A DNA stretch of 64,000 nt from Eledone cirrhosa (lineage: Eukaryota), in assembly GCA_964016885.1 (NCBI GenBank), contig OZ024740.1:424390001-424454000 (forward strand), written 5' to 3'. Below the pieces are notes generated by a model. It was not told the origin of the DNA. It was given only the letters and a program-made list of their open reading frames with translations, and did no database searches. A program made the position numbers and the translations under genes. The number at the start of each line of letters is the position of its first letter. Within the stretch, counting starts at the first letter, position 1. This document shows positions 18,948-64,000 of this stretch, in pieces.

Positions 18948-19283
18948 CGTCCAGGTCTTTCGCGAACGCATCACGATACTCTGGCTGCTTGAGTCGTGCG
19001 ACGTCGAAAGCTGGCCTACAGACTTTCGGAGTGTTGCGATGCGTCGGGGTGATGTGCAGTGACAGGATGGTCCTGACAAGGCGATGGTCGGTCCAACATT
19101 CTGCACCACGCATGGCCCTGGTGATTCTAACATCACGGATATCCCTCCTGCGGTATATGACAAAGTCAATCAGATGTCACTGTTTGGATCTGGGGTGCAT
19201 CCATGTCGTCTTCAACTTGTTTGCCTGGCGGAACAGTGTGCTGTGATGGTGAGGTCGTCCTCGGCGCAGAAACTCAACAGTAT
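18948..19283 (-). mobile_element. RTE-clade (BovB/SR2-like) LINE fragment, endonuclease C-terminal half
   Basis: TLFRQANKLKTTWMHPRSKQ*HLIDFVIYRRRDIRDVRITRAMRGAECWTDHRLVR matches the RTE motif TWMHPRSKxWHLIDY...CWTDHRL, with a W-to-stop change and a frameshift upstream. Confidence 0.85.
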
Positions 19284-21692: not shown

Positions 21693-21830
21693 GCATGGCT
21701 TAGTGGTTAGAGCATTGGACTTGCAATCGAAAGGTTGCGAGTTCAATTCTCGCACCGGCTGATGTGTTGTTTCCTTGAGCAAGACACTTTATTTTACGTT
21801 GCTCCTTTTTCCTCAGCTGTAGAAATGAGA
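21693..21830 (+). mobile_element. tRNA-derived SINE family B (head plus CORE-like body)
   Basis: TGGCTTAGTGGTTAG (A box), GAGTTCAATTCTC (B box), then TGTGTTGTTTCCTTGAGCAAGACACTTTATTTTACGTTGCTCC. Confidence 0.8.
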
Positions 21831-28957: not shown

Positions 28958-29345
28958 AGTTGCACAACTGTTATTATCGGCTGTGTCTAGTATATGATTG
29001 TTTGTGTGTATATGTGTATATGGTTGTTTGTGCGTATATGTGTATATTTGCCTGGTTACTTTATATGTATGGTTGTTTTGTATATATGAATGTGTGTGTG
29101 TGTATATATGTGTATGTGAGTGATTACTTCTTATATATGCCTGTTTGTATGTATCTGTGTATATGTGTATATGTGCATTACTTGTTATGTAAGCCTGTTT
29201 GTGTGTATATGTGTATATGTGCATTACTTTATATGTATGCCTGTGTGTCATATACACACATGTTGCTTTGTGTCTATATTTATTCCAAGAAAGTCACATG
29301 GGGAAGCTTTGAAAAGTTTTACAAATGTTCACTTCATCTCTAATC

Positions 29346-29460
29346 GTGAGTATCTGAGTGGTTAGAGAATTGGATTCCTAATGGTGAGGTTGCGAGTTTG
29401 ATTCCCAGACCGGGCGATGTGTTTTGTCTTTGGAAAGGACCCTGTATTTCACATTGCTCC
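29346..29460 (+). mobile_element. SINE family B head running directly into the satellite
   Basis: TGAGTGGTTAGAGAATTGG...GGTTGCGAGTTTGATTCCCAGACCGGGCGATGTGTT aligns colinearly with 21700-21770. Confidence 0.8.
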
Positions 29461-32400
29461 TTCTACCGTGTAATGTCTTTGGTAAAACACCCTGTATTTC
29501 ATATTGCTCCTTCTACCGTGTAATGTCTTTGGTAAAACACCCTGTATTTCATATTGCTCCTTCTACCGTGTAATGTCTTTGGTAAAACACCCTGTATTTC
29601 ACATTGCTCCTTCTACCGTGTAATGTCTTTGGTAAAACACCCTGTATTTCACATTGCTCCTTCTACCGTGTAATGTCTTTGGTAAAACACCCTGTATTTC
29701 ATATTGCTCCTTCTACCGTGTAATGTCTTTGGTAAAACACCCTGTATTTCATATTGCTCCTTCTACCGTGTAATGTCTTTGGTAAAACACCCTGTATTTC
29801 ATATTGCTCCTTCTACCGTGTAATGTCTTTGGTAAAACACCCTGTATTTCACATAGCTCCTTCTACCGTGTAACGTCTTTGGTAAAACACCCTGTATTTC
29901 ACATTGCTCCTTCTACCGTGTAATGTCTTTGGTAAAACACCCTGTATTTCATATTGCTCCTTCTACCGTGTAATGTCTTTGGTAAAACACCCTGTATTTC
30001 ATATTGCTCCTTCTACCGTGTAATGTCTTTGGAAAACACCCTGTATTTCATATTGCTCCTTCTACCGTGTAATGTCTTTGGTAAAACACCCTGTATTTCA
30101 TATTGCTCCTTCTACCGTGTAATGACTTTGGTAAAACACCCTGTATTTCACATAGCTCCTTCTACCGTGTAACGTCTTTGGTAAAACACCCTGTATTTCA
30201 TATTGCTCCTTATACCGTGTAATGTCTTTGGTAAAACACCCTGTATTTCATATTGCTCCCTCTGCCGTGTAATGTCTTTGGTAAAACACCATGTATTTCA
30301 TATTGCTCCTTCTACCGTGTAACGTCTTTGGTAAAACACCCTGTATTTCACATTGCTCCCTCTGCCGTGTAATGTCTTTCGTAAAACGCCCTGTATTTCA
30401 TATTGCTCCTTCTACCGTGTAATGTCTTTGGTAAAACACCCTGTATTTCATATTGCTCCTTCTACCGTGTAATGTCTTTGGTAAAACACCCTGTATTTCA
30501 TATTGCTCCGTCTACCGTGTAATGTCTTTGGTAAAACACCCTGTAGTTCACATTGCTCCTTCTACCGTGTAATGTCTTTGGTAAAACACCCTGTATTTCA
30601 TATTGCTCCACCTACCGTGTAATGTCTTTGGTAAAACACCCAATATTTCACATTGCTCCCTCTGCCGTGTAATGTCTTTCGTAAAACGCCCTGTATTTCA
30701 TATTGCTCCTTCTACCGTGTAATGTCTTTGGTAAAACACCCAATATTTCACATTGCTCCCTCTGCCGTGTAATGTCTTTCGTAAAACGCCCTGTATTTCA
30801 TATTGCTCCTTCTACCGTGTAATGTCTTTGGTAAAACACCCAATATTTCACATTGCTCCCTCTGCCGTGTAATGTCTTTCGTAAAACGCCCTGTATTTCA
30901 TATTGCTCCTTCTAACGTGTAATGTCTTTGGTAAAACACCCTGTATTTCATATTGCTCCTTCTACTGTGTAATGTCTTTGGTAAAACACCCTGTATTTCA
31001 CATTGCTCCTTCTACCGTGTAATATCTTTGGTAAAACACCCTGTATTTCATATTGCCCCTTCTACCGTGTAATGTCTTTGGTAAAACAGCCTGTATTTCA
31101 CATTGCTCCTTCTACAGTGTAATGTCTTTGGTAAAACACCCTGTATTTCACATTGCTCCCTCTGCCGTGTAATGTCTTTCGTAAAACACCCTGTATTTCA
31201 CATTGCTCCCTCTGCCGTGTAATGTCTTTCGTAAAACACCCTGTATTTCACATTGCTCCCTCTGCCGTGTAATGTCTTTCGTAAAACACCCAATATTTCA
31301 CATTGCTCCCTCTGCCGTGTAATGTCTTTCGTAAAACGCCCTGTATTTCATATTGCTCCTTCTAACGTGTAATGTCTTTGGTAAAACACCCTGTATTTCA
31401 TATTGCTCCTTCTACTGTGTAATGTCTTTGGTAAAACACCCTGTATTTCACATTGCTCCTTCTACCGTGTAATATCTTTGGTAAAACACCCTGTATTTCA
31501 TATTGCCCCTTCTACCGTGTAATGTCTTTGGTAAAACAGCCTGTATTTCACATTGCTCCTTCTACAGTGTAATGTCTTTGGTAAAACACCCTGTATTTCA
31601 CATTGCTCCCTCTGCCGTGTAATGTCTTTCGTAAAACACCCTGTATTTCACATTGCTCCTTCTAACGTGTAATGTCTTTGGTAAAACACCCTGTATTTCA
31701 TATTGCTCCTTCTACCGTGTAATGTCTTTGGTAAAACACCCTGTATTTCATACTGCTCCTTCTACCATGTAACGTCTTTGGTAAAACACCCTGTATTTAA
31801 CATTGCTCCCTCTGCCGTGTAATGTCTTTCGTAAAACGCCCTGTATTTCATATTGCTCCCTCTGCCGTGTAATGTCTTTGGTAAAACACCCTGTATTTCA
31901 CATTGCTCCCTCTGCCGTGTAATGTCTTTCGTAAAACGCCCTGTATTTCATATTGCTCCTTCTACCGTGTAACGTCTTTGGTAAAACACCCTGTATTTCA
32001 TATTGCTCCCTCTGCCGTGTAATGTCTTTCGTAAAACGCCCTGTATTTCACATTGCTCCCTCTGCCGTGTAATGTCTTTCGTAAAACGCCCTGTATTTCA
32101 TATTGCTCCCTCTGCCGTGTATTGTCTTTCGTAAAACACCCTGTATTTCATATTGCTCCCTCTGCCGTGTAATGTCTTTCGTAAAACGCCCTGTATTTCA
32201 TATTGCTCCCTCTGCCGTGTAATGTCTTTCGTAAAACACCCTGTATTTCATATTGCTCCCTCTGCCGTGTAATGTCTTTCGTAAAACACCCTGTATTTCA
32301 TATTGCTCCCTCTGCCGTGTAATGTCTTTCGTAAAACGCCCTGTATTTCACATTGCTCCCTCTGCCGTGTAATGTCTTTCGTAAAACGCCCTGTATTTCA

Positions 32401-35400
32401 TATTGCTCCCTCTGCCGTGTAATGTCTTTCGTAAAACACCCTGTATTTCATATTGCTCCCTCTGCCGTGTAATGTCTTTCGTAAAACGCCCTGTATTTCA
32501 TATTGCTCCCTCTGCCGTGTAATGTCTTTCGTAAAACACCCTGTATTTCATATTGCTCCCTCTGCCGTGTAATGTCTTTCGTAAAACACCCTGTATTTCA
32601 TATTGCTCCCTCTGCCGTGTAATGTCTTTCGTAAAACGCCCTGTATTTCACATTGCTCCCTCTGCCGTGTAATGTCTTTCGTAAAACGCCCTGTATTTCA
32701 TATTGCTCCCTCTGCCGTGTAATGTCTTTCGTAAAACACCCTGTATTTCATATTGCTCCCTCTGCCGTGTAATGTCTTTCGTAAAACGCCCTGTATTTCA
32801 TATTGCTCCCTCTGCCGTGTAATGTCTTTCGTAAAACGCCCTGTATTTCATATTGCTCCCTCTACCGTGTAATGTCTTTGGTAAAACACCCTGTATTTCA
32901 CATCGCTCCTTCTACCGTGTAATGTCTTTGGTAAAGCACTCTGTATTTCACATTGCTCCTTCTACCGTGTAATGTCTTTGGTAAAACACCCTGTATTTCA
33001 CATTGCTCCTTCTACCGTGTAATGTCTTTGGTAAAGCACTCTGTATTTCACATTGCTCCTTCTACCGTGTAATGTCTTTGGTAAAACAGCCTGTATTTCA
33101 CATTGCTCCTTCTACCGTGTAATGTCTTTGGTAAAACACCCTTTATTTTACATTGCTCCTTCTACCGTGTAATGTCTTTGGTAAAACACCCTGTATTTCA
33201 CATTGCTCCTTCTCCCGTGTAATGTCTTTGGTAAAACACCCTGTATTTCATATTGCCCCTTCTACCGTGTAATGTCTTTGGTAAAACAGCCTGTATTTCA
33301 CATTGCTCCTTCTACCGTGTAATGTCTTTGGTAAAACACCCTGTATTTCATATTGCTCCTTCTACCGTGTAATGTCTTTGGTAAAACACCCTGTATTTCA
33401 TATTGCTCCTTCTACCGTGTAATGTCTTTGGTAAAACACCCTGTATTTCATATTGCTCCTTCTACCGTGTAATGTCTTTGGTAAAACACCCTGTATTTCA
33501 TATTACTCCTTCTACCGTGTAATGTCTTTGGTAAAACACCCTTTATTTTACATTGCTCCTTCTACCGTGTAATGTCTTTGGTAAAACACCCTGTATTTCA
33601 TATTGCTCCTTCTACCGTGTAACGTCTTTGGTAAAACACCCTGTATTTCACATTGCTCCCTCTGCCGTGTAATGTCTTTCGTAAAACGCCCTGTATTTCA
33701 TATTACTCCTTCTACCGTGTAATGTCTTTGGTAAAACACCCTTTATTTTACATTGCTCCTTCTACCGTGTAACGTCTTTGGTAAAACACCCTGTATTTCA
33801 CATTGCTCCCTCTGCCGTGTAATGTCTTTCGTAAAACGCCCTGTATTTCATATTGCTCCTGCTAACGTGTAATGTCTTTGGTAAAACACCCTGTATTTCA
33901 TATTGCTCCACCTACCGTGTAATGTCTTTGGTAAAACACCCTGTATTTCACATTGCTCCATCTACCGTGTAATGTCTTTGGTAAAACACCCTGTATTTAA
34001 CATTGTTCCTTCTACCCTGTAATGTCTTTGGTAAAACACCCTGTATTTCACATTGCTCCTTCTACCGTGTAATGTCTTTGGTAAAACACCCTGTATTTCA
34101 CATTGCTCCCTCTGCCGTGTAATGTCTTTGGTAAAACACCCTGTATTTCATATTGCTCCTTTTACCGTGAATGTCTTTGGTAAAACACCCTGTATTTCAT
34201 ATTGCTCCTTCTACCGTGTAATGTCTTTGGTAAAACACCCTGTATTTCACATTGCTCCCTCTGCCTTGTAATGTCTTTGATAAAACACCCTGTATTTCAT
34301 ATTGCTCCTTCTACCGTGTAATGTCTTTGGTAAAACACCCTGTATTTCACATTGCTCCTTCTACCGTGTAATGTCTTTGGTAAAACACCCTGTATTTCAC
34401 ATTGCTCCTTCTACCGTGTAATGTCTTTGGCAAAGGACCCTGTATTTCACATTGCTCCTTCTACCGTGTAATGTCTTTGGTAAAACATCCTGTATTTCAC
34501 ATTGCTCCTTCTACCGTGTAATGTCTTTGGAAAAACACCCTGTATTTCATATTGCTCCTCCTACCGTGTAATGTCTTTGGTAAAACACCCTGAATTTCAC
34601 ATTGCTCCCTCTGCCGTGTAATGTCTTTGGTAAAACACCCTGCATTTCATATTGCTCCTTCTACCGTGTAATGTTTTGGTAAAACACCCTGTATTTCACG
34701 TTGCTCCTTCTACCGTGTAATGTCTTTGGTAAAACACCCTGTATTTCACATTGCTCCTTCTACCGTCTAATGTCTTTGGTAAAACACCCTGTATTTCACA
34801 TTGCTCCTTCTACCGTGTAACGTCTTTGGTAAAACACCCTCTATTTCACATTGCTACTTCTGCCGTGTAATGTCTTTCGTAAAACACCCTGTATTTCATA
34901 TTGCTCCTTCTAACGTGTAATGTCTTTGGTAAAACACCCTGTATTTCCCATTGCTCCTTCTACCGTGTAATATCTTTGGTAAAACACCCTGTATTTCACA
35001 TTGCTCCTTCTACCGTGTAATGTCTTTGGTAAAACACCCTGTATTTCACATTGCTCCTTCTACCGTGTAATGTCTTAGGTAAAACACCCTGTATTTCATA
35101 TTGCCCCTTCTACCGTGTAATGTCTTTGGTAAAACACCCTATATTTCATATTGCTCCTTCTACCGTGTAATGTCTTTGGTAAAGGACCCTGTATTTCATA
35201 TTGCTCCTTCTACCGTTTAATGTCTTTGGTAAAACACCCTGTATTTCATATTGCTCCTTCTACCGTGTAATGTCTTTGGTAAAACACCCTGTATTTCATA
35301 TTGCTCCTTCTACCGTGTAATGTCTTTGGTGAAACACCCTGTATTTCATATTACTCCTTCTACCGTGTAATGTCTATGGTAAAACACCCTGTATTTCACA

Positions 35401-38400
35401 ACGCTCATTCTACCGTCTAATGTCTTTGGTAAAGCACTCTGTATTTCACATTGCTCCTTCTACCGTGTAATGTCTTTGGTAAAACACCCTGTATTTCATA
35501 TTGCTCCCTCTGCCGTGTAATGTCTTTGGTAAAACACCCTGTATTTCATATTGCTCCTTCTACCGTGTAACGTCTTTGGTAAAACACCCTGTATTTCACA
35601 TTGCTCCCTCTGCCGTGTAATGTCTTTCGTAAAACGCCCTTTATTTCATATTGCTCCTGCTAACGTGTAATGTCTTTGGTAAAACACCCTGTATTTCATA
35701 TTGTTCCACCTACCGTGTAATGTCTTTCGTAAAACACCCTGTATTTCACATTGCTCCCTCTGCCGTGTAATGTCTTTCGTAAAACACCCTGTATTTCATA
35801 TTGCCCCTTCTACCGTGTAATGTCTTTGGTAAAACACCCTATATTTCATATTGCTCCTTCTACCGTGTAATGTCTTTGGTAAAGGACCCTGTATTTCATA
35901 TTGCTCCTTCTACCGTTTAATGTCTTTGGTAAAACACCCTGTATTTCATATTGCTCCTTCTACCGTGTAATGTCTTTGGTAAAACACCCTGTATTTCATA
36001 TTGCTCCTTCTACCGTGTAATGTCTTTGGTGAAACACCCTGTATTTCATATTACTCCTTCTACCGTGTAATGTCTATGGTAAAACACCCTGTATTTCACA
36101 ACGCTCATTCTACCGTCTAATGTCTTTGGTAAAGCACTCTGTATTTCACATTGCTCCTTCTACCGTGTAATGTCTTTGGTAAAACACCCTGTATTTCATA
36201 TTGCTCCCTCTGCCGTGTAATGTCTTTGGTAAAACACCCTGTATTTCATATTGCTCCTTCTACCGTGTAACGTCTTTGGTAAAACACCCTGTATTTCACA
36301 TTGCTCCCTCTGCCGTGTAATGTCTTTCGTAAAACGCCCTTTATTTCATATTGCTCCTGCTAACGTGTAATGTCTTTGGTAAAACACCCTGTATTTCATA
36401 TTGTTCCACCTACCGTGTAATGTCTTTCGTAAAACACCCTGTATTTCACATTTCTCCTTCTACCGTGTAATATCTTTGGTAAAACACCCTGTATTTCATA
36501 TTGCTCCGTCTACCGTGTGATGTCTTTGGTAAAACACCCTGTATTTCACATTGCTCCTTTTACGTGTAATGTCTTTGGTAAAACACCCTGTATTTCATAT
36601 TGCTCCTTCTACCGTGTAATGTCTTTGGTAAAGGACCCTGTATTTCATATTGCTCCTTCTACCGTGTAATGTCTTTGGTAAAACACCCTGTATTTCATAT
36701 TGCTCCTTCTACCGTGTAATGTCTTTCGTAAAACACCCTGTATTTCACATTGCTCCCTCTGCCGTGTAATGTCTTTCGTAAAACACCCTGTATTTCATAT
36801 TGCTCCTTCTACCGTGTAATGTCTTTGGTAAAACACCCTGTATTTCACATTGCTCCCTCTGCCGTGTAATGTCTTTCGTAAAACGCCCTGTATTTCATAT
36901 TGCTCCTTCAAACGTGTAATGTCTTTGGTAAAACACCCTGTATTTCATATTGCTCCTTCTACCGTGTAATGTCTTTGGTAAAACACCCTGTATTTCACAT
37001 TGCTCCTTCTACCGTGTAATGTCTTTGGTAAAACACCCTGTATTTCATATTGCCCCTTCTACCGTGTAATGTCTTTGGTAAAACAGCCTGTATTTCACAT
37101 TGCTCCTTCTACCGTGTAATGTCTTTAGTAAAACACCCTGTATTTCATATTACTCCTTCTACCGTGCAATGTCTTTGGTAAAACACCCTGTATTTCATAT
37201 TGCTCCTTCTACCGTGTAATGTCTTTGGTAAAACACCCTGTATTACATATTGCTCCCTCTGCCGTGTAATGTCTTTGGTAAAACACCCTGTATTTCATAT
37301 TGCTCCCTCTACCGTGTAATGTCTTTGGTAAAACACCCTGTATTTCACATTGTTCCTTCTACCCTGTAATGTCTCTGGTAAAACACCCTGTATTTCACAT
37401 TGCTCCTTCTACCGTGTAATGTCTTTGGTAAAACACCCTGTATTTCACATTGCTCCCTCTGCCGTGTAATGTCTTTGGTAAAACACCCTGTATTTCATAT
37501 TGCTCCTTTTACCGTGAATGTCTTTGGTAAAACACCCTGTATTTCATATTGCTCCTTCTACCGTGTAATGTCTTTGGTAAAACACCCTGTATTTCACATT
37601 GCTCCCTCTGCCGTGTAATGTCTTTGATAAAACACCCTGTATTTCATATTGCTCCTTCTACCGTGTAATGTCTTTGGTAAAACACCCTGTATTTCACATT
37701 GCTCCTTCTACCGTGTAATGTCTTTGGTAAAACACCCTGTATTTCACATTGCTCCTTCTACCGTGTAATGTCTTTGGCAAAGGACCCTGTATTTCACATT
37801 GCTCCTTCTACCGTGTAATGTCTTTGGTAAAACATCCTGTATTTCACATTGCTCCTTCTACCGTGTAATGTCTTTGGAAAAACACCCTGTATTTCATATT
37901 GCTCCTCCTACCGTGTAATGTCTTTGGTAAAACACCCTGCATTTCATATTGCTCCTTCTACCGTGTAATGTCTTCGGTAAAACACCCTGTATTTCACGTT
38001 GCTCCTTCTACCGTGTAATATCTTTGGTAAAACACCCTGTATTTCACATTGCTCCTTCTACCGTGTAATTTCTTTGGTAAAACACCCTGTATTTCATATT
38101 GCTCCTTCTACCGTGTAATGTCTTTGGTAAAGGACCCTGTATTTCATATTGCTCCTTCTACCGTGTAATGTGTTTGGTAAAACACCCTGTATTTCACATT
38201 GCTCCTTCTACCGTGTAATGTCTTTGGCAAAGGACCCTGTATTTCACATTGCTCCTTCTACCGTGTAATGTCTTTGGTAAAACACCCTGTATTTCACATT
38301 GCTCCTTCTACCGTGTAATGTCTTTGGTAAAACACCCTTTATTTCATATTGGTCCTTCTACCGTGTAACGTCTTTGGTAAAGGACCCTGTATTTCACATT

Positions 38401-41400
38401 GCTCCTTCTACCGTGTAATCTCTTTGGTAAAACACCCTCTATTTCACATTGCTCCTTCTACCGTGTAATGTCTTTGGTAAAACAGCCTGTATTTCACATT
38501 TCTCCTTCTACCGTGTAATATCTTTGGTAAAACACCCTGTATTTCATATTGCTCCGTCTACCGTGTGATGTCTTTGGTAAAACACCCTGTATTTCACATT
38601 GCTCCTTTTACGTGTAATGTCTTTGGTAAAACACCCTGTATTTCATATTGCTCCTTCTACCGTGTAATGTCTTTGGTAAAGGACCCTGTATTTCATATTG
38701 CTCCTTCTGCCGTGTAATGTCTTTGGTAAAACACCCTGTATTTCATATTGCTCCTTCTACCGTGTAATGTCTTTCGTAAAACACCCTGTATTTCACATTG
38801 CTCCCTCTGCCGTGTAATGTCTTTCGTAAAACACCCTGTATTTCATATTGCTCCTTCTACCGTGTAATGTCTTTGGTAAAACACCCTGTATTTCACATTG
38901 CTCCCTCTGCCGTGTAATGTCTTTCGTAAAACGCCCTGTATTTCATATTGCTCCTAACGTGTAATGTCTTTGGTAAAACACCCTGTATTTCATATTGCTC
39001 CTTCTACCGTGTAATGTCTTTGGTAAAACACCCTGTATTTCACATTGCTCCTTCTACCGTGTAATGTCTTTGGTAAAACACCCTGTATTTCATATTGCCC
39101 CTTCTACCGTGTAATGTCTTTGGTAAAACAGCCTGTATTTCACATTGGTCCTTCTACCGTGTAATGTCTTTGGTAAAACACCCTGTATTTCATATTACTC
39201 CTTCTACCGTGCAATGTCTTTGGTAAAACACCCTGTATTTCATATTGCTCCTTCTACCGTGTAATGTCTTTGGTAAAACACCCTGTATTACATATTGCTC
39301 CTTCTACCGTGTAAGGTCTTTGGTAAAACACCCTGTATTTCATATTGCTCCCTCTGCCGTGTAATGTCTTTGGTAAAACACCCTGTATTTCATATTGCTC
39401 CCTCTGCCGTGTAATGTCTTTGGTAAAACACCCTGTATTTCATATTGCTCCCTCTACCGTGTAATGTCTTTGGTAAAACACCCTGTATTTCACATTGTTC
39501 CTTCTACCCTGTAATGTCTTTGGTAAAACACCCTGTATTTCACATTGCTCCTTCTACCGTGTAATGTCTTTGGTAAAACACCCTGTATTTCACATTGCTC
39601 CCTCTGCCGTGTAATGTCTTTGGTAAAACACCCTGTATTTCATATTGCTCCTTTTACCGTGAATGTCTTTGGTAAAACACCCTGTATTTCATATTGCTCC
39701 TTCTACCGTGTAATGTCTTTGGTAAAACACCCTGTATTTCACATTGCTCCCTCTGCCGTGTAATGTCTTTGATAAAACACCCTGTATTTCATATTGCTCC
39801 TTCTACCGTGTAATGTCTTTGGTAAAACACCCTGTATTTCACATTGCTCCTTCTACCGTGTAATGTCTTTGGTAAAACACCCTGTATTTCACATTGCTCC
39901 TTCTACCGTGTAATGTCTTTGGCAAAGGACCCTGTATTTCACATTGCTCCTTCTACCGTGTAATGTCTTTGGTAAAACATCCTGTATTTCACATTGCTCC
40001 TTCTACCGTGTAATGTCTTTGGAAAAACACCCTGTACTTCATATTGCTCCTCCTACCGTGTAATGTCTTTGGTAAACCACCCTGCATTTCATATTGCTCC
40101 TTCTACCGTGTAATGTCTTCGGTAAAACACCCTGTATTTCACGTTGCTCCTTCTACCGTGTAATGTCTTTGGTAAAACACCCTGTATTTCACATTGCTCC
40201 TTCTACCGTCTAATGTCTTTGGTAAAACACCCTGTATTTCACATTGCTCCTTCTACCGTGTAACGTCTTTGGTAAAACACCCTCTATTTCACATTGCTAC
40301 TTCTGCCGTGTAATGTCTTTCGTAAAACACCCTGTATTTCATATTGCTCCTTCTAACGTCTAATGTCTTTGGTAAAACACCCTGTATTTCCCATTGTTCC
40401 TTCTACCGTGTAATATCTTTGGTAAAACACCCTGTATTTCACATTGCTCCTTCTACCGTGTAATTTCTTTGGTAAAACACCCTGTATTTCATATTGCTCC
40501 TTCTACCGTGTAATGTCTTTGGTAAAGGACCCTGTATTTCATATTGCTCCTTCTACCGTGTAATGTGTTTGGTAAAACACCCTGTATTTCACATTGCTCC
40601 TTCTACCGTGTAATGTCTTTGGTAAAACACCCTGTATTTCACATTGCTCCTTCTACCGTGTAATGTCTTTGGCAAAGGACCCTGTATTTCACATTGCTCC
40701 TTCTACCGTGTAATGTCTTTGGTAAAACACCCTGTATTTCACATTGCTCCTTCTACCGTGTAATGTCTTTGGTAAAACACCCTTTATTTCATATTGGTCC
40801 TTCTACCGTGTAACGTCTTTGGTAAAGGACCCTGTATTTCACATTGCTCCTTCTACCGTGTAATGTCTTTGGTAAAACACCCTGTATTTCACATTGCTCC
40901 TTCTACCGTGTAATGTCTTTGGTAAAACACCCTGTATTTCATATTGCTCCTTTTACCGTGTAATGTCTTTGGTAAAACACCCTGTATTTCATATTGCTCC
41001 TTTTACCGTGTAATGTCTTTGGTAAAACACCCTGTATTTCATATTGCTCCTTCTACCGTGTAATGTCTTTGGTAAAACACCCTGTATTTCACATTGCTCC
41101 CTCTGCCGTGTAATGTCTTTGATAAAACACCCTGTATTTCATATTGCTCCTTCTACCGTGTAATGTCTTTGGTAAAACACCCTGTATTTCATATTGCTCC
41201 TTCTACCGTGTAATGTCTTTGGTAAAACACCCTGTATTTCACATTGCTCCTTCTACCGTGTAATGTCTTTGGTAAAACACCCTGTATTTCACATTGCTCC
41301 TTCTACCGTCTAATGTCTTTGGTAAAACACCCTGTATTTCACATTGCTCCTTCTACCGTGTAACGTCTTTGGTAAAACACCCTCTATTTCACATTGCTAC

Positions 41401-44400
41401 TTCTGCCGTGTAATGTCTTTCGTAAAACACCCTGTATTTCATATTGCTCCTTCTAACGTGTAATGTCTTTGGTAAAACACCCTGTATTTCACATTGCTCC
41501 TTCTACCGTGTAATATCTTTGGTAAAACACCCTGTATTTCACATTGCTCCTTCTACCGTGTAATGTCTTTGGTAAAACACCTTTATTTCATATTGCTTTT
41601 TCTACCGTGTAACGTCTTTGGTAAAGGACCCTGTATTTCACATTGCTCCTTCTACCGTGTAATATCTTTGGTAAAACACCCTGTATTTCACATTGCTCCT
41701 TCTACCGTGTAATGTCTTTGGTAAAACACCCTGTATTTCATATTGCTCCTTCTACCGTGTAATGTCTTTGGTAAAGGACCCTGTATTTCATATTGCTTCT
41801 TCTACCGTGTAATGTCTTTGGTAAAACACCCTGTATTTCATATTGCTCCCTCTACCGTGGAATGTCTTTGGTAAAACACCCGGTATTTCACATTGCTCCT
41901 TCTACCGTGTAATGTCTTTGGTAAAACACCCTGTATTTCATATTGCTCCTTCTACCGTGTAATGTCTTTGGTAAAACACCCTGTATTTCACATTGCTCCC
42001 TCTGCCGTGTAATGTATTTGGTAAAACACCCTGTATTTCATATTGCTCCTTCTACCGTGTAATGTCTTTGGTAAAACACCCTGTATTTCATACTGCTCCT
42101 TCTACCGTGTAATGTCTTTGGTAAAACACCCTGTATTTCAAATTGCTCCTTCTACCGTGTAATGTCTTTGGTAAAACACCCTGTATTTCACATTGGTCCT
42201 TCTACCGTGTAATGTCTTTGGTAAAACACCCTGTATTTCACATTGCTCCTTCTACCGTGTAATGTCTTTGGTAAAACACCCTGTATTTCACATTGCTCCC
42301 TCTGCCGTGTAATGTCTTTGATAAAACACCCTGTATTTCATATTGCTCCTTCTACCGTGTAATGTCTTTGGTAAAACACCCTGTATTTCACATTGCTCCA
42401 TCTACCGTGTAATGTCTTTGGTAAAACACCCTGTATTTCACATTGCTCCTTCTACCGTGTAATGTCTTTGGCAAAGGACCCTGTATTTCACATTGCTCCT
42501 TCTACCGTGTAATGTCTTTGGTAAAACATCCTGTATTTCACATTGCTCCTTCTACCGTGTAATGTCTTTGGAAAAACACCCTGTATTTCATATTGCTCCT
42601 CCTACCGTGTAATGTCTTTGGTAAAACACCCTGCATTTCATATTGCTCCTTCTACCGTGTAATGTCTTCGGTAAAACACCCTGTATTTCACGTTGCTCCT
42701 TCTACCGTGTAATGTCTTTGGTAAAACACCCTGTATTTCACATTGCTCCTTCTACCGTCTAATGTCTTTGGTAAAACACCCTGTATTTCACATTGCTCCT
42801 TCTACCGTGTAACGTCTTTGGTAAAACACCCTCTATTTCACATTGCTACTTCTGCCGTGTAATGTCTTTCGTAAAACACCCTGTATTTCATATTGCTCCT
42901 TCTAACGTCTAATGTCTTTGGTAAAACACCCTGTATTTCCCATTGCTCCTTCTACCGTGTAATATCTTTGGTAAAACACCCTGTATTTCACATTGCTCCT
43001 TCTACCGTGTAATTTCTTTGGTAAAACACCCTGTATTTCATATTGCTCCTTCTACCGTGTAATGTGTTTGGTAAAGGACCCTGTATTTCATATTGCTCCT
43101 TCTACCGTGTAATGTGTTTGGTAAAACACCCTGTATTTCACATTGCTCCTTCTACCGTGTAATGTCTTTGGTAAAACACCCTGTATTTCACATTGCTCCT
43201 TCTACCGTGTAATGTCTTTGGCAAAGGACCCTGTATTTCACATTGCTCCTTCTACCGTGTAATGTCTTTGGTAAAACACCCTGTATTTCACATTGCTCCT
43301 TCTACCGTGTAATGTCTTTGGTAAAACACCCTTTATTTCATATTGGTCCTTCTACCGTGTAACGTCTTTGGTAAAGGACCCTGTATTTCACATTGCTCCT
43401 TCTACCGTGTAATGTCTTTGGTAAAACACCCTGTATTTCACATTGCTCCTTCTACCGTGTAATGTCTTTGGTAAAACACCCTGTATTTCACATTGCTCCT
43501 TCTACCGTGTAATGTCTTTCGTAAAACACACTGTATTTCATATTGCTCCTTCTACCGTGTAATGTCTTTGGTAAAACACCCTGTATTTCATATTGCTCCT
43601 TCTACCGTGTAATGTCTTTGGCAAAACACACTGTATTTCACATTGCTCCTTCTACTGTGTAATGTCTTTGGTAAAACACCCTATATTTCACATTGCTCCT
43701 TCTACCGTGTAATGTCTTTGGTAAAACACCCTGTATTTCACATTGCTCCATCTACCGTGTAATGTCTTTGGTAAAACACCCTGTATTTCACATTGCTCCT
43801 TCTACCGTGTAATGTCTTTGGTAAAACACCCTGTATTTCACATTGCTCCTTCTACCGTGTAATGTCTTTGGTAAAACACCCTGTATTTCACATTGCTCCA
43901 TCTACCGTGTAATGTCTTTGGTAAAACACCCTGTATTTCACATTGCTCCTTCTACCGTGTAATGTCTTTGGTAAAACACCCTGTATTACATATTGCTCCT
44001 TCTACCGTGTAAGGTCTTTGGTAAAACACCCTGTATTTCATATTGCTCCCTCTGCCGTGTAATGTCTTTGGTAAAACACCCTGTATTTCATATTGCTCCC
44101 TCTGCCGTGTAATGTCTTTGGTAAAACACCCTGTATTTCATATTGCTCCCTCTACCGTGTAATGTCTTTGGTAAAACACCCTTTATTTCACATTGTTCCT
44201 TCTACCCTGTAATGTCTTTGGTAAAACACCCTGTATTTCATATTGCTCCTTCTACCGTGTAATGTCTTTGGTAAAACACCCTGTATTTCACATTGCTCAC
44301 TCTGCCGTGTAATGTCTTTGGTAAAACACCCTGTATTTCATATTGCTCCTTTTACCGTGTAATGTCTTTGGTAAAACACCCTGTATTTCATATTGCTCCT

Positions 44401-47400
44401 TTTACCGTGTAATGTCTTTGGTAAAACACCCTGTATTTCATATTGCTCCTTCTACCGTGTAATGTCTTTGGTAAAACACCCTGTATTTCACATTGCTCCC
44501 TCTGCCGTGTAATGTCTTTGATAAAACACCCTGTATTTCATATTGCTCCTTCTACCGTGTAATGTCTTTGGTAAAACACCCTGTATTTCATATTGCTCCT
44601 TCTACCGTGTAATGTCTTTGGTAAAACACCCTGTATTTCACATTGCTCCTTCTACCGTGTAATGTCTTTGGTAAAACACCCTGTATTTCACATTGCTCCT
44701 TCTACCGTCTAATGTCTTTGGTAAAACACCCTGTATTTCACATTGCTCCTTCTACCGTGTAACGTCTTTGGTAAAACACCCTCTATTTCACATTGCTACT
44801 TCTGCCGTGTAATGTCTTTCGTAAAACACCCTGTATTTCATATTGCTCCTTCTAACGTGTAATGTCTTTGGTAAAACACCCTGTATTTCACATTGCTCCT
44901 TCTACCGTGTAATATCTTTGGTAAAACACCCTGTATTTCACATTGCTCCTTCTACCGTGTAATGTCTTTGGTAAAACACCTTTATTTCATATTGCTTTTT
45001 CTACCGTGTAACGTCTTTGGTAAAGGACCCTGTATTTCACATTGCTCCTTCTACCGTGTAATATCTTTGGTAAAACACCCTGTATTTCACATTGCTCCTT
45101 CTACCGTGTAATGTCTTTGGTAAAACACCCTGTATTTCATATTGCTCCTTCTACCGTGTAATGTCTTTGGTAAAGGACCCTGTATTTCATATTGCTTCTT
45201 CTACCGTGTAATGTCTTTGGTAAAACACCCTGTATTTCATATTGCTCCCTCTACCGTGGAATGTCTTTGGTAAAACACCCGGTATTTCACATTGCTCCTT
45301 CTACCGTGTAATGTCTTTGGTAAAACACCCTGTATTTCATATTGCTCCTTCTACCGTGTAATGTCTTTGGTAAAACACCCTGTATTTCACATTGCTCCCT
45401 CTGCCGTGTAATGTATTTGGTAAAACACCCTGTATTTCATATTGCTCCTTCTACCGTGTAATGTCTTTGGTAAAACACCCTGTATTTCATACTGCTCCTT
45501 CTACCGTGTAATGTCTTTGGTAAAACACCCTGTATTTCAAATTGCTCCTTCTACCGTGTAATGTCTTTGGTAAAACACCCTGTATTTCACATTGGTCCTT
45601 CTACCGTGTAATGTCTTTGGTAAAACACCCTGTATTTCACATTGCTCCTTCTACCGTGTAATGTCTTTGCTAAAACATCCTGTATTTCACATTGCTCCTT
45701 CTACCGTGTAATGTCTTTGGTAAAACACCCTGTATTTCATATTGCTCCTTCTACCGTGTAATGTCTTTGGTAAAACACCCTGTATTTCACATTGCTCCTT
45801 CTACCGTCTAATGTCTTTGGTAAAACACCCTGTATTTCACATTGCTCCTTCTACCGTGAATGTCTTTGGTAAAACACCCTGTATTTCATATTGCTCCTTC
45901 TACCGTGTAATGTCTTTGGTAAAACACCCTTTATTTTACATTGCTCCCTCTGCCGTGTAATGTCTTTGATAAAAAACCCTGTATTTCATATTGCTCCTTC
46001 TACCGTGTAATGTCTTTGGTAAAACACCCTGTATTTCATATTGCTCCCTCTGCCGTGTAATGTCTTTGGTAAAACACCCTGTATTTCATATTGCTCCTTC
46101 TACCGTGTAATGTCTTTGGTAAAACACCCTGTATTTCACGTTGCTCCTTCTACCGTGTAATGTCTTTGGTAAAACACCCTGTATTTCACATTGCTCCTTC
46201 TACCGTCTAATGTCTTTGGTAAAACACCCTGTATTTCACATTGCTCCTTCTACCGTGTAATGTCTTTGGTAAAACACCCTGTATTTCACGTTGCTCCTTC
46301 TACCGTGTAATGTCTTTGGTAAAACACCCTGTATTCCACATTGCTCCTTCTACCGTCTAATGTCTTTGGTAAAACACCCTGTATTTCACATTGGTCCTTC
46401 TACCGTGTAACGTCTTTGGTAAAACACCCTTTATTTCACATTGCTACTTCTGCCGTGTAATGTCTTTCGTAAAACACCCTGTATTTCATATTGCTCCTTC
46501 TAACGTGTAATGTCTTTGGTAAAACACCCTGTATTTCACATTGCTCCTTCTACCGTGTAATATCTTTGGTAAAACACCCTGTATTTCACATTGCTCCTTC
46601 TACCGTGTAATGTCTTTGGTAAAACACCTTTATTTCATATTGCTTTTTCTACCGTGTAACGTCTTTGGTAAAGGACCCTGTATTTCACATTGCTCCTTCT
46701 ACCGTGTAATATCTTTGGTAAAACACCCTGTATTTCACATTGCTCCTTCTACCGTGTAATGTCTTTGGTAAAACACCCTGTATTTCATATTGCTACTTTT
46801 ACCGTGTAATGTCTTTGGTAAAGGACCCTGTATTTCATATTGCTCCTTCTACCGTGTAATGTGTTTGGTAAAACACCCTGTATTTCACATTGCTCCTTCT
46901 ACCGTGTAATGTCTTTGGTAAAACACCCTGTATTTCACATTGCTCCTTCTACCGTGTAATGTCTTTGGCAAAGGACCCTGTATTTCACATTGCTCCTTCT
47001 ACCGTGTAATGTCTTTGGCAAAACACCCTGTATTTCATATTGCTCCCTTTTGCCGTGTAATTTGTTGGTAAAACACCCTGTATTTCTTATTGCTCATTCT
47101 ACCGTGAATGTCTTTGGTAAAACACCCTGTATTTCATATTGCTCCTTCTACCGTGTAACGTCTTTGGTAAAACACCCTGTATTTCATATTGCTTCTTCTA
47201 CCGTGTAATGTCTTTGGTAAAACACCCTGTATTTCATATTGCTCCCTCTACCGTGGAATGTCTTTGGTAAAACACCCGGTATTTCACATTGCTCCTTCTA
47301 CCGTGTAATGTCTTTGGTAAAAAACCCTTTATTTTACATTGCTCCCTCTGCCGTGTAATGTCTTTGATAAAAAACCCTGTATTTCATATTGCTCCTTCTA

Positions 47401-50400
47401 CCGTGTAATGTCTTTGGTAAAACACCCTGTATTTTATATTGCTCCCTCTGCCGTGTAATGTCTTTGGTAAAACACCCTGTATTTCATATTGCTCCTTCTA
47501 CCGTGTAATGTCTTTGCTAAAACAGCCTGTATTTCACATTGCTCCTTCTACCGTGTAATGTCTTTGGTAAAACACCCTGTATTTCACGTTGCTCCTTCTA
47601 CCGTGTAATGTCTTTGGTAAAACACCCTGTATTTCACATTGCTCCTTCTACCGTCTAATGTCTTTGGTAAAACACCCTGTATTTCACATTGCTCCTTCTA
47701 CCGTGTAACGTCTTTGGTAAAACACCCTTTATTTCACATTGCTACTTCTGCCGTGTAATGTCTTTCGTAAAACACCCTGTATTTCATATTGCTCCTTCTA
47801 ACGTGTAATGTCTTTGGTAAAACACCCTGTATTTCACATTGCTCCTTCTACCGTGTAATATCTTTGGTAAAACACCCTGTATTTCACATTGCTCCTTCTA
47901 CCGTGTAATGTCTTTGGTAAAACACCTTTATTTCATATTGCTTTTTCTACCGTGTAACGTCTTTGGTAAAGGACCCTGTATTTCACATTGCTCCTTCTAC
48001 CGTGTAATATCTTTGGTAAAACACCCTGTATTTCACATTGCTCCTTCTACCGTGTAATGTCTTTGGTAAAACACCCTGTATTTCATATTGCTCCTTTTAC
48101 CGTGTAATGTCTTTGGTAAAGGACCCTGTATTTCATATTGCTCCTTCTACCGTGTAATGTATTTGGTAAAACACCCTGTATTTCACATTGCTCCTTCTAC
48201 CGTGTAATGTCTTTGGTAAAACACCCTGTATTTCACATTGCTCCTTCTACCGTGTAATGTCTTTGGCAAAGGACCCTGTATTTCACATTGCTCCTTCTAC
48301 CGTGTAATGTCTTTGGCAAAACACCCTGTATTTCATATTGCTCCCTTTTGCCGTGTAATTTGTTGGTAAAACACCCTGTATTTCTTATTGCTCATTCTAC
48401 CGTGAATGTCTTTGGTAAAACACCCTGTATTTCATATTGCTCCTTCTACCGTGTAACGTCTTTGGTAAAGCACCCTGTATTTCATATTGCTTCTTCTACC
48501 GTGTAATGTCTTTGGTAAAACACCCTGTATTTCATATTTCTCCCTCTACCGTGGAATGTCTTTGGTAAAACACCCGGTATTTCACATTGCTCCTTCTACC
48601 GTGTAATGTCTTTGGTAAAACACCCTGTATTTCATATTGCTCCTTCTACCGTGTAATGTCTTTGGTAAAACACCCTGTATTTCACATTGCTCCCTCTGCC
48701 GTGTAATGTATTTGGTAAAACACCCTGTATTTCATATTGCTCCTTCTACCGTGTAATGTCTTTGGTAAAACACCCTGTATTTCATATTGCTCCTTCTACC
48801 GTGTAATGTCTTTGGTAAAACACCCTGTATTTCAAATTGCTCCTTCTACCGTGTAATGTCTTTGGTAAAACACCCTGTATTTCACATTGGTCCTTCTACC
48901 GTGTAATGTCTTTGGTAAAACACCCTGTATTTCACATTGCTCCTTCTACCGTGTAATGTCTTTGCTAAAACATCCTGTATTTCACATTGCTCCTTCTACC
49001 GTGTAATGTCTTTGGTAAAACACCCTGTATTTCATATTGCTCCTTCTACCGTGTAATGTCTTTGGTAAAACACCCTGTATTTCACATTGCTCCTTCTACC
49101 GTCTAATGTCTTTGGTAAAACACCCTGTATTTCACATTGCTCCTTCTACCGTGAATGTCTTTGGTAAAACACCCTGTATTTCATATTGCTCCTTCTACCG
49201 TGTAATGTCTTTGGTAAAACACCCTTTATTTTACATTGCTCCCTCTGCCGTGTAATGTCTTTGCTAAAAAACCCTGTATTTCATATTGCTCCTTCTACCG
49301 TGTAATGACTTTGGTAAAACACCCTGTATTTCATATTGCTCCCTCTGCCGTGTAATGTCTTTGGTAAAACACCCTGTATTTCATATTGCTCCTTCTACCG
49401 TGTAATGTCTTTGCTAAAACAGCCTGTATTTCACATTGCTCCATCTACCGTGTAATGTCTTTGGTAAAACACCCTGTATTTCACGTTGCTCCTTCTACCG
49501 TGTAATGTCTTTGGTAAGACACCCTGTATTTCATATTGCTCCCTCTGACGTGTAATGTCTTTGGTAAAACACCCTTTATTTCACATTGCTCCCTCTGCCG
49601 TGTAATGTCTTTGGTAAAACACACTGTATTTCACATTGCTCCTTCTACCGTGTAATGTCTTTGGTAAAACACCCTGTATTTCATATTGCTCCTTCTACCG
49701 TGTAATGTCTTTGGTAAAACACCCTGTATTTCACATTGCTCCTTCTACCGTGTAATGTCTTTGGTAAAACACCCTGTATTTCACATTGCTCCTTCTACCG
49801 TCTAATGTCTTTGGTAAAACACCCTGTATTTCACATTGCTCCTTCTACCGTGTAACGTCTTTGGTAAAACACCCTCTATTTCACATTGCTACTTCTGCCG
49901 TATAATGTATTTCGTAAAACACCCTGTATTTCATATTGCTCCTTCTAACGTGTAATGTCTTTGGTAAAACACCCTGTATTTCACATTGCTCCTTCTACCG
50001 TGTAATATCTTTGGTAAAACACCCTGTATTTCACATTGCTCCTTCTACCGTGTAATGTCTTTGGTAAAACACCTTTATTTCATATTGCTTTTTCTATCGT
50101 GTAACGTCTTTGGTAAAGGACCCTGTATTTCACATTGCTCCTTCTACCGTGTAATATCTTTGGTAAAACACCCTGTATTTCACATTGCTCCTTCTACCGT
50201 GTAATGTCTTTGGTAAAACACCCTGTATTTCATATTGCTCCTTCTACCGTGTAATGTCTTTGGTAAAGGACCCTGTATTTCATATTGCTCCTTCTACCGT
50301 GTAATGTGTTTGGTAAAACACCCTGTATTTCACATTGCTCCTTCTACCGTGTAATGTCTTTGGTAAAACACCCTGTATTTCACATTGCTCCTTCTACCGT

Positions 50401-53400
50401 GTAATGTCTTTGGCAAAGGACCCTGTATTTCACATTGCTCCTTCTACCGTGTAATGTCTTTGGCAAAACACCCTGTATTTCATATTGCTCCCTTTTGCCG
50501 TGTAATTTGTTGGTAAAACACCCTGTATTTCTTATTGCTCATTCTACCGTGAATGTCTTTGGTAAAACACCCTGTATTTCATATTGCTCCTTCTACCGTG
50601 TAACGTCTTTGGTAAAGCACCCTGTATTTCATATTGCTTCTTCTACCGTGTAATGTCTTTGGTAAAACACCCTGTATTTCATATTTCTCCCTCTACCGTG
50701 GAATGTCTTTGGTAAAACACCCGGTATTTCACATTGCTCCTTCTACCGTGTAATGTCTTTGGTAAAACACCCTGTATTTCATATTGCTCCTTCTACCGTG
50801 TAATGTCTTTGGTAAAACACCCTGTATTTCACATTGCTCCCTCTGCCGTGTAATGTATTTGGTAAAACACCCTGTATTTCATATTGCTCCTTCTACCGTG
50901 TAATGTCTTTGGTAAAACACCCTGTATTTCATATTGCTCCTTCTACCGTGTAATGTCTTTGGTAAAACACCCTGTATTTCAAATTGCTCCTTCTACCGTG
51001 TAATGTCTTTGGTAAAACACCCTGTATTTCACATTGGTCCTTCTACCGTGTAATGTCTTTGGTAAAACACCCTGTATTTCACATTGCTCCTTCTACCGTG
51101 TAATGTCTTTGCTAAAACATCCTGTATTTCACATTGCTCCTTCTACCGTGTAATGTCTTTGGTAAAACACCCTGTATTTCATATTGCTCCTTCTACCGTG
51201 TAATGTCTTTGGTAAAACACCCTGTATTTCACATTGCTCCTTCTACCGTCTAATGTCTTTGGTAAAACACCCTGTATTTCACATTGCTCCTTCTACCGTG
51301 AATGTCTTTGGTAAAACACCCTGTATTTCATATTGCTCCTTCTACCGTGTAATGTCTTTGGTAAAACACCCTTTATTTTACATTGCTCCCTCTGCCGTGT
51401 AATGTCTTTGCTAAAAAACCCTGTATTTCATATTGCTCCTTCTACCGTGTAATGACTTTGGTAAAACACCCTGTATTTCATATTGCTCCCTCTGCCGTGT
51501 AATGTCTTTGGTAAAACACCCTGTATTTCATATTGCTCCTTCTACCGTGTAATGTCTTTGCTAAAACAGCCTGTATTTCACATTGCTCCATCTACCGTGT
51601 AATGTCTTTGGTAAAACACCCTGTATTTCACGTTGCTCCTTCTACCGTGTAATGTCTTTGGTAAGACACCCTGTATTTCATATTGCTCCCTCTGACGTGT
51701 AATGTCTTTGGTAAAACACCCTTTATTTCACATTGCTCCCTCTGCCGTGTAATGTCTTTGGTAAAACACACTGTATTTCACATTGCTCCTTCTACCGTGT
51801 AATGTCTTTGGTAAAACACCCTGTATTTCATATTGCTCCTTCTACCGTGTAATGTCTTTGGTAAAACACCCTGTATTTCACATTGCTCCTTCTACCGTGT
51901 AATGTCTTTGGTAAAACACCCTGTATTTCACATTGCTCCTTCTACCGTCTAATGTCTTTGGTAAAACACCCTGTATTTCACATTGCTCCTTCTACCGTGT
52001 AACGTCTTTGGTAAAACACCCTCTATTTCACATTGCTACTTCTGCCGTATAATGTATTTCGTAAAACACCCTGTATTTCATATTGCTCCTTCTAACGTGT
52101 AATGTCTTTGGTAAAACACCCTGTATTTCACATTGCTCCTTCTACCGTGTAATATCTTTGGTAAAACACCCTGTATTTCACATTGCTCCTTCTACCGTGT
52201 AATGTCTTTGGTAAAACACCTTTATTTCATATTGCTTTTTCTATCGTGTAACGTCTTTGGTAAAGGACCCTGTATTTCACATTGCTCCTTCTACCGTGTA
52301 ATATCTTTGGTAAAACACCCTGTATTTCACATTGCTCCTTCTACCGTGTAATGTCTTTGGTAAAACACCCTGTATTTCATATTGCTCCTTCTACCGTGTA
52401 ATGTCTTTGGTAAAGGACCCTGTATTTCATATTGCTCCTTCTACCGTGTAATGTGTTTGGTAAAACACCCTGTATTTCACATTGCTCCTTCTACCGTGTA
52501 ATGTCTTTGGTAAAACACCCTGTATTTCACATTGCTCCTTCTACCGTGTAATGTCTTTGGCAAATGACCCTGTATTTCACATTGCTCCTTCTACCGTGTA
52601 ATGTCTTTGGCAAAACACCCTGTATTTCATATTGCTCCCTTTTGCCGTGTAATTTGTTGGTAAAACACCCTGTATTTCTTATTGCTCATTCTACCGTGAA
52701 TGTCTTTGGTAAAACACCCTGTATTTCATATTGCTCCTTCTACCGTGTAACGTCTTTCGTAAAACACCCTGTATTTCATATTGCTCCCTCTGCCGTGTAA
52801 TGTCTTTGGTAAAACACTCTGTATTTCACATTGTTCCTTCTACCGTGGAATGTCTTTGGTAAAACACCCGGTATTTCACATTGCTCCTTCTACCGTGTAA
52901 TGTCTTTGGTAAAACACCCTGTATTTCATATTGCTCCTTCTACCGTGTAATGTCTTTGGTAAAACACCCTGTATTTCACATTGCTCCCTCTGCCGTGTAA
53001 TGTATTTGGTAAAACACCCTGTATTTCATATTGCTCCTTCTACCGTGTAATGTCTTTGGTAAAACACCCTGTATTTCATATTGCTCCTTCTACCGTGTAA
53101 TGTCTTTGGTAAAACACCCTGTATTTCAAATTGCTCCTTCTACCGTGTAATGTCTTTGGTAAAACTCCCTGTATTTCACATTGGTCCTTCTACCGTGTAA
53201 TGTCTTTGGTAAAACACCCTGTATTTCACATTGCTCCTTCTACCGTGTAATGTCTTTGCTAAAACATCCTGTATTTCACATTGCTCCTTCTACCGTGTAA
53301 TGTCTTTGGTAAAACACCCTGTATTTCATATTGCTCCTTATACCGTGTAATGTCTTTGGTAAAACACCCTGTATTTCACATTGCTCCTTCTACCGTCTAA

Positions 53401-62400: not shown

Positions 62401-64000
62401 AAACACCCTGTATTTCATATTGCTCCTTCTACCGTGTAATGTCTTTGGTAAAACACCCTGTATTTCACATTGCTCCCTCTGCCGTGTAATGTCTTTGATA
62501 AAACACCCTGTATTTCATATTGCTTCTTCTACCGTGTAATGTCTTTGGTAAAACACCCTGTATTTCATATTGCTCCCTCTGCCGTGTAATGTCTTTGGTA
62601 AAACACCCTGTATTTCATATTGCTCCCTCTGCCGTGTAATGTCTTTGGTAAAACACCCGGTATTTCATATTGCTCCTTCTACCGTGTAATGTCTTTGGTA
62701 AAACACCCTGTATTTCACATTGCTCGTTCTACCGTGTAATGTCTTTGGTAAAACACCCTGTGTTTCATATTGCTCCTTCTACCGTGTAATGCCTTTGGTA
62801 AAACACACTGTATTTCACATTGCTCCTTCTACCGTGTAATCTCTTTGGTAAAACACCCTGTATTTCATATTGCTCCTTCTACCGTGTAATGTCTTTGGTA
62901 AAACACCCTGTATTTCACATTGCTCCTTCTACCGTGTAATGTCTTTGGTAAAACACCCTGTATTTCACATTGCTCCTTCTACCGTCTAATGTCTTTGGTA
63001 AAACACCCTGTATTTCACATTGCTCCTTCTACCGTGTAACGTCTTTGGTAAAACACCCTCTATTTCACATTGCTACATCTGCCGTGTAATGTCTTTCGTA
63101 AAACACCCTGTATTTCATATTGCTCCTTCTAACGTGTAATGTCTTTGGTAAAACACCCTGTATTTCACATTGCTCCTTCTACCGTGTAATATCTTTGGTA
63201 AAACACCCTGTATTTCACATTGCTCCTTCTACCGTGTAATGTCTTTGGTAAAACACCTTTATTTCATATTGCTTTTTCTACCGTGTAACGTCTTTGGTAA
63301 AGGACCCTGTATTTCACATTGCTCCTTCTACCGTGTAATATCTTTGGTAAAACACCCTGTATTTCACATTGCTCCTTCTACCGTGTAATGTCTTTGGTAA
63401 AACACCCTGTATTTCATATTGCTCCTTCTACCGTGTAATGTCTTTGGTAAAGGACCCTGTATTTCATATTGCTCCTTCTACCGTGTAATGTGTTTGGTAA
63501 AATACCCTGTATTTCACATTGCTCCTTCTACCGTGTAATGTCTTTGGTAAAACACCCTGTATTTCACATTGCTCCTTCTACCGTGTAATGTCTTTGGCAA
63601 ATGACCCTGTATTTCACATTGCTCCTTCTACCGTGTAATGTCTTTGGCAAAACACCCTGTATTTCATATTGCTCCCTTTTGCCGTGTAATTTGTTGGTAA
63701 AACACCCTGTATTTCTTATTGCTCATTCTACCGTGAATGTCTTTGGTAAAACACCCTGTATTTCATATTGCTCCTTCTACCGTGTAACGTCTTTGGTAAA
63801 ACACCCTGTATTTCATATTGCTTCTTCTACCGTGTAATGTCTTTGGTAAAACACCCTGTATTTCATATTGCTCCCTCTGCCGTGTAATGTCTTTGGTAAA
63901 ACACCCGGTATTTCATATTGCTCCTTCTACCGTGGAATGTCTTTGGTAAAACACCCTGTATTTCACATTGCTCCTTCTACCGTGTAATGTCTTTGGTAAA
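29425..64000. repeat. 50-bp satellite DNA array, ~690 monomers, continuing past the window end
   Basis: Consensus TAATGTCTTTGGTAAAACACCCTGTATTTCA(C/T)ATTGCTCCTTCTACCGTG, head-to-tail in a single orientation with no insertions noticed. Confidence 0.99.

Follow-up and report, generated by a model that had tools for sequence, protein, structure and literature searches.

SINEs are among the established sources of satellite DNA (PMC9659126, PMC12692304), and the accessible parts of the literature describe systems close to the locus presented here. In squamate reptiles the satellites sSat1-3 derive from SINEs: their units measure about 70-290 nt, their longest loci reach up to about 950 and over 1200 units, and usually one SINE end is kept, both ends being uncommon in the accessible text—the supplements of that paper may bear on such both-ended loci (Vassetzky, Kosushkin and Ryskov 2023; PMC10702118). 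In human and mouse, minisatellites derive from Alu and B1 elements, and 2663 human minisatellites are linked to Alu in what is accessible of PMC9659126. CORE-SINEs, the octopus OR1 and OR2 included, are named in the accessible parts of PMC4824008, PMC5804259 and PMC4758252; the first of these reports the 5' 45 bp of the CORE as conserved among all CORE-SINEs, a length close to that of the segment amplified here. Like sSat1-3, as the accessible text of PMC10702118 presents them, the array described below consists of tandem units taken from part of a SINE, here one whose head looks tRNA-like, with SINE sequence at the array ends.

A single SINE-shaped element carries, enclosed by its head and tail, 836 tandem copies of a 50-bp stretch of the SINE body; this array very probably arose on the spot, unequal exchange having repeatedly enlarged a seed of two units. 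The window, i.e. the whole stretch of 64,000 nt analysed (G000:C1:424,390,001-424,454,000, in a genome of 3.0 Gb), contains the beginning of the array only: from 29425 onwards, TRF gives a period of 50 bp and 692.3 copies up to the end of the window. The next 200 kb downstream were fetched to locate the far end, which falls at extended position 71179 (L031:7179), 7.2 kb past the window; extended coordinates are G000:C1 positions minus 424,390,000. The satellite that the initial annotation gave as longer than 34 kb, with ~690+ copies, is real but larger: it measures 41,761 bp (41.8 kb) in 836 units of 50 bp—one assembly's number, since near-identical multi-kb blocks may include assembly duplication—and no N occurs in the 264 kb inspected. 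An element of originally ~250 bp is now stretched to 41,957 bp, on a contig of 443 Mb whose end is 18.4 Mb away. As had also been noticed initially, the array adjoins the SINE head without a gap; the A-box string at 29355-29365, the B-box-like string at 29394-29405, the first monomer at 29418-29460 and the T4 run at 29422-29425 are all in place, the latter falling inside the first unit (Table 1).

Table 1. Coordinates of the expanded SINE, its array and the other arrays discussed; positions are those of the window unless given as extended, locus or contig positions.
Feature	Position	Strand	Remark
Comparator SINE	21693..21830, limits approximate	+	related, other subfamily
Candidate 5' TSD, 8 bp, TCTAATCG	29339..29346	+	directly 5' of SINE start
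SINE head, damaged 5' end	29347..29418	+	A-box-like 29351-29361, B-box-like 29394-29405
First unit, 49 bp, collinear with head	29419..29467	+	rank 1 of 836 in score to SINE segment
50-bp tandem array, part inside window	29468..64000	+	about 692 units
Largest block duplication, youngest	50448..63890, end approximate	+	137 units (about 6.8 kb), lag 132 units
SINE 3' body and long tail	extended 71180-71303 (L031:7180-7303)	+	in register directly after last unit
Candidate TSD partner, 8 bp	extended 71304-71311 (L031:7304-7311)	+	directly 3' of SINE end
Nine 45-bp arrays with identical SINE tail	L109, L111-L117, L129 (C16, C19, C20, C27)
257-unit array of 45-bp unit	L149-L150, G000:C2:7,542,094-7,553,877		11.8 kb; SINE head and tail kept
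Loci of foreign 45-bp unit	L089-L092, L120 (C20:9.3-11.3 Mb); L096 (C26:2.5 Mb); L097 (C26:5.7 Mb)
Private 62-bp unit, about 9 copies	L098 (C26:19.43 Mb)		young-subfamily SINE, joined at 6-bp microhomology

The parent of the array belongs to a dispersed high-copy family: a head-plus-body pattern matched the genome 34,998 times and its reversed control not once, and the best 40 of 3,872 candidates scored in a search with the head and first unit were dispersed copies, at 85-89% over 111-122 bp. Family copies are about 230-250 bp long. Of these copies 29 were aligned, to give the majority of a young short-tail subfamily; their body runs through TTCTACC exactly like the monomer, and head plus first unit are identical to this majority at 100 of 114 positions. 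The monomer contains no foreign sequence: it corresponds to the SINE segment from just past the B-box region to TTCTACC, that is 49 bp plus one inserted base. The initial proposal depended on a similarity between monomer and SINE better than that of shuffled controls, and the typical monomer indeed scores 52 against its own SINE family majority, compared with 16.8±2.5 for dinucleotide shuffles, none of 2000 reaching this value. Against the SINE at 21.7 kb the score is 36 (0 of 2000 shuffles reach it, about 17±2.5), and the first monomer agrees with its positions 21763-21805 at 32 of 43 sites, ungapped; the alignment pointed out initially holds, but the comparator is of a different subfamily. 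Past the TTGCTCC motif, this copy no longer follows the monomer; it was rejected as parent, its tail scoring only 20 at the far end, a value reached by 623 of 2000 shuffles.

The central segment of the SINE may resemble a CORE domain, the family being a candidate CORE-SINE; of the segment seen in the 21.7-kb copy, the host subfamily keeps the 5' part only. An older SINE copy with a fuller central segment also lies at L031:7540-7790, 240 bp past the SINE tail of the array. As for the expanded segment itself, a pattern specific to the monomer was matched 512 times in the genome, always on the forward strand, a number equal to the 512 matches in the local array: the monomer occurs at a single locus, this array.

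At the near end, the A-box-like motif of the head shows AT in place of the GG of family copies, and the B-box-like motif carries a C>T change at 29399; judged by eye, the box-like motifs stand at tRNA-like spacing. Rfam returned neither a tRNA nor a credible family for the head, just microsatellite noise below gathering scores, and for a family copy no tRNA match at E<=10, with one hit at E 7.6. At the far end, where the initial annotation recommended looking for the SINE 3' tail, the tail was found, in register: taken alone it scores 94 against 19±3 in shuffles, of which 0 of 2000 reach 94, and its best 39 other genomic matches are at 80-83%. The two outer borders of the element carry the same 8 bp. 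A match of this length was met in 0.5% of 20,000 random flank windows (null 0.005); since the search windows were picked by eye and a similar motif is present inside the SINE head, the 8-mer is only a candidate target-site duplication (TSD), which would bracket the whole 42-kb element.

Inside the array, the units differ on average by 4.3% from the majority unit and fall into 218 variants. The closest to the SINE among the 836 is unit 1, and the SINE-type TTA is found in four units only, three of them within the last seven (units 830, 833 and 836). The interior is made up of nested block duplications, from 0.6 to about 6.8 kb: repeated blocks appear at lags of 14, 43, 68, 132 and 175 units, and blocks of 12, 27, 42 and 44 units are free of mismatches (0/600, 0/1349, 0/2097 and 0/2197). 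The largest block shows 5 mismatches over 6,841 aligned bases, and could stem either from an unequal exchange of recent date or from duplication in the assembly. Unequal exchange in the middle of an array, the edges being spared, is the established model of satellite growth, and the pattern of edges and interior seen here would be its signature. We propose that a SINE inserted, leaving an 8-bp target-site duplication; that a segment of 49-50 bp was then duplicated; and that the array was enlarged and homogenised by unequal crossover or replication-based block duplication, which its distal position on the chromosome may have favoured. This last step may also have fixed about 10 differences from the family across all units. 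The amplification in place of a SINE-body segment, put forward in the initial annotation, is thereby sustained by the far-end tail, the candidate TSD, the private monomer and the SINE-like edge units.

The unit is nevertheless about 20% diverged from both of the SINE subfamilies compared below, while the head and tail are diverged by 6-7%, and foreign 45-bp units are found inside other SINE copies. One could then imagine that the 50-bp unit, or a short array of it, was formed elsewhere and copied into the host SINE by ectopic conversion, as seems to be the case for the 45-bp unit. We consider this improbable: no second genomic locus bears the 50-bp unit, its derived letter set occurs in none of the 29 aligned closest head relatives, and the sequence approaches that of the SINE at unit 1 and in the last units. 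Another rival is that misassembly brought a SINE next to a satellite block unrelated to it; the array does contain long near-identical blocks. No listed read or contig bridges the flank, the head and the array, so that the junction rests on the assembly and on its internal consistency. The latter is high: matching SINE halves lie in register on both sides, with the candidate TSD and the edge gradients, over 264 kb uninterrupted by any N. Three runs of one sample, possibly the source of the assembly, contain 0.66-0.88 of 32 sampled words of 29230-29730, the value of 0.88 being that of run X1. A misassembled junction is therefore hardly credible. Other SINE copies account for most of the read depth on the head. 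Besides, RAD reads of two other samples thinly cover the units, and a contig from a run labelled as a different organism matches 29453-29530 (78 bp) with one difference, spanning the private unit junction; the unit is thus no artefact, and probably occurs in more than one individual. We also note that one X1 contig skips 53 bases from the head into the array, at a depth of 9.

The origin of the two-unit seed may be examined by comparing the host with the young subfamily and with an old long-tail one, for which 24 relatives were aligned of 39 tail-picked matches (8 of these 24, truncated in 5', were dropped from the old majority). The head is identical to the young majority at 61 of 65 positions and to the old one at 56, whereas the tail agrees with the old subfamily at 63 of 68 and with the young at 58, a contrast inflated by the choice of both sets for their likeness to the host head or tail. 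On the 5' side of the host, 4 of 5 diagnostic columns show the young type; on its 3' side, 8 of the 9 columns that precede the parting of the tails show the old type, and the tail is the long one. The head marker CCTAAT accompanies the young downstream motif in 68 copies and the old one in 2 of 362 old-type copies. Among the 836 units themselves, 678 have the young state and 157 the old one, which is also that of the last three units. A young head, an old tail and both states among the units would follow if a copy of the young subfamily and one of the old had exchanged sequence out of register, either by gene conversion at the locus or by template switch during reverse transcription; the conservation of the TSD would fit these two routes better than a deletion between two loci. 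Such a chimeric seed is the origin that we favour, with some reserve. Indeed the unit is identical to the young majority at only 39 of 49 positions and to the old at 37-38, so that a third, diverged donor might still be envisaged for it; the head is off the young majority at 4 of 65 positions, more than most copies with the CCTAAT marker; one head and one tail column disagree, and copies intermediate between the subfamilies exist (L024, L027, L177).

For this second step of the scenario only, the same expansion could have started in one ordinary SINE of the old subfamily whose 50-bp segment was doubled through slippage or repair; the young markers of its head would then be due to chance. Heads of the old subfamily vary and often have the B-box spelling of the host, CCTAAT does occur in the two old copies mentioned, and the TSD implies one insertion; moreover, private local duplications of 39, 55, 60 and 62 bp are found elsewhere, that of 62 bp with a 6-bp microhomology. 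Yet the host head lies at +5 toward the young type while 16 old heads range from -7 to +2 (in selection-biased sets), and the prevalence of the young state among the units also speaks against a single old SINE, which we regard as possible, but as the less probable origin. No microhomology is evident at the junction of the 50-bp unit. An initial 57-bp unit with a 3-bp microhomology and a later 7-bp loss, prompted by two GGG-starting units near the 3' end, was discarded, one substitution explaining them equally well.

Could the array be transcribed from the promoter of its SINE? The array is immediately preceded by the A- and B-box-like motifs in the sense orientation, and most units lack a four-T run (46 such runs in 42 kb). 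On the other hand, both boxes are mutated where young family copies are intact, the change at 29399 hits the C that is invariant in the B boxes of tRNA genes, and the T4 run starts 17 bp past the B box. Judging from these motifs, functional satellite transcripts driven by Pol III appear very improbable, and read-through into the array unlikely. Most likely the array is neutral satellite DNA, poorly transcribed or untranscribed, and no function is indicated.

The initial annotation implied a rarity that turned out to be too high: at least 18 other SINE copies have tandem duplications of the body, a class described in squamates. A tandem-pair pattern has 4,084 genome matches, 553 of them in the local array, and a head followed by a duplicated body is found at 19 loci at least, host included (by exact match to a pattern slightly different from that of the 34,998 matches). 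Six of these 19 have private breakpoints—the host, the four duplications of 39 to 62 bp cited above and a rearranged one—and the other 13 share one common 45-bp unit with an identical junction. This junction occurs 4,213 times genome-wide, and 29 loci of the 45-bp unit end in a SINE tail, not all independently since nine share one identical tail and three another. The tail common to the nine arrays indicates that the array was copied to several chromosomes as part of a larger segment. Copies of the host's young subfamily, which is devoid of the junction letters of the unit, contain the 45-bp unit at L090 and L096; the same situation is met in other subfamilies at L089 and L097 and, less clearly, at L091, L092 and L120. 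Five of these loci cluster in a 2-Mb stretch of C20 and differ in their flanks. As the junction letters are absent from the subfamilies hosting them, local slippage cannot make these 45-bp units, while exchange between copies can, which suggests an ectopic transfer of the 45-bp minisatellite between SINE copies. By contrast, the 62-bp array of L098 is a clean case of local slippage.

Array loci also seem to have preferred places. Among the matches listed on C1-C3, a contig end is no more than 25 Mb away for 9 of 10 array loci, compared with 7 of 108 unexpanded copies (Fisher p about 1e-8, with a threshold of 25 Mb set post hoc, junction matches listed only to within C2 and an old-type control that omits C3). 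The young-type head and old-type tail of the host, and the occurrence of the 45-bp unit in subfamilies without its junction sequence, both suggest that recombination between SINE copies seeds arrays. In a broader and more tentative reading, to which we give a little less than even credit, the central segment of the SINE would act as a landing pad: units would be copied across SINE copies and subfamilies by ectopic recombination, without retrotransposing, and would sometimes explode near chromosome ends, the 42-kb array seeded by young and old copies being the extreme case.

The 264-kb region is without an obvious host gene: among stop-to-stop frames of at least 80 aa only retroelement-like fragments and noise were recognised by eye, a survey that short exons would escape. 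Fragments resembling LINE- or Penelope-type reverse transcriptase or endonuclease, also assigned by eye, lie at window 18796-19176 (minus strand) and at extended 133445-134005, 138200-139474 and 185467-187556. Other tandem arrays are present. About 2.6 copies of a 209-bp dispersed repeat, whose unit matches 41 retrieved loci, occupy window 1-537; a 29-bp array of 20 copies at 6078-6661 has a unit resembling the A-box start of another SINE type, and a single head similar to this unit is seen at about 6880-6990; a 69-bp array of 45 copies at 14714-17818 has no match among the retrieved loci. Downstream, a second large array (extended 77624-97354, L032-L034; 51-bp unit, 387 copies, 19.7 kb) starts 6 kb past the end of the 50-bp array and has a common dispersed repeat as 3' flank. 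A 50-bp array of 6.5 copies at extended 146990-147313 (L039) runs into the tail of a dispersed repeat, and is probably another repeat-derived array. Compared with the 346 kb of retrieved loci, a small database, the units of 10 of the 13 other local arrays gave no match.

The birthplace of a satellite is usually erased, so that its origin is hidden. At this locus the element of origin can still be read, together with its two junctions, a likely scar of insertion and the succession of block duplications, and the arrays of the same genome grade in size from 2 to 836 units; the birth and growth of satellites thus become testable by comparing orthologous loci. In the literature covered, short of subscription papers and supplements, we found nothing on SINE-derived satellites in cephalopods nor on units moving between SINE subfamilies, and the accessible part of PMC10702118 carries no report of such moves for squamate sSats.

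Measured against the definition of an sSat, the unit is homologous to a SINE and shorter than it, the array has far more than the minimum of four head-to-tail middle units (836), both terminal units run into the remainder of the SINE, the units are homogenised (mean difference of 4.3%), and the array loci are biased toward subtelomeric positions according to the counts given above (9/10 vs 7/108 among the matches listed, threshold post hoc). The kinship with sSat1-3, in the accessible account of PMC10702118, extends to the hundreds of units, the homogeneous long arrays, the alternating subvariants and the subtelomeric bias; the present array differs by its 50-bp unit confined to a single locus, by the retention of both SINE ends with a candidate TSD, and by a genome that, from the resemblance of its SINEs to those of octopus, is presumably that of a cephalopod. 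Like CORE-SINEs, as far as the accessible descriptions go, the family associates a head that looks tRNA-like with a conserved central segment common to subfamilies with different tails. With the Alu and B1 minisatellites of PMC9659126, in its accessible part, the array shares the birth of short tandem units inside SINE copies. However, 42 kb and multi-kb higher-order blocks are of satellite scale, unlike those minisatellites. Alu- and B1-derived minisatellites mostly form short arrays. The array, unusually complete for a SINE-derived satellite, is likely a clear example of an already known route of satellite birth, which it extends beyond squamates—a wider range left open by the squamate authors in the accessible text of PMC10702118—while repeating the bias toward chromosome ends.
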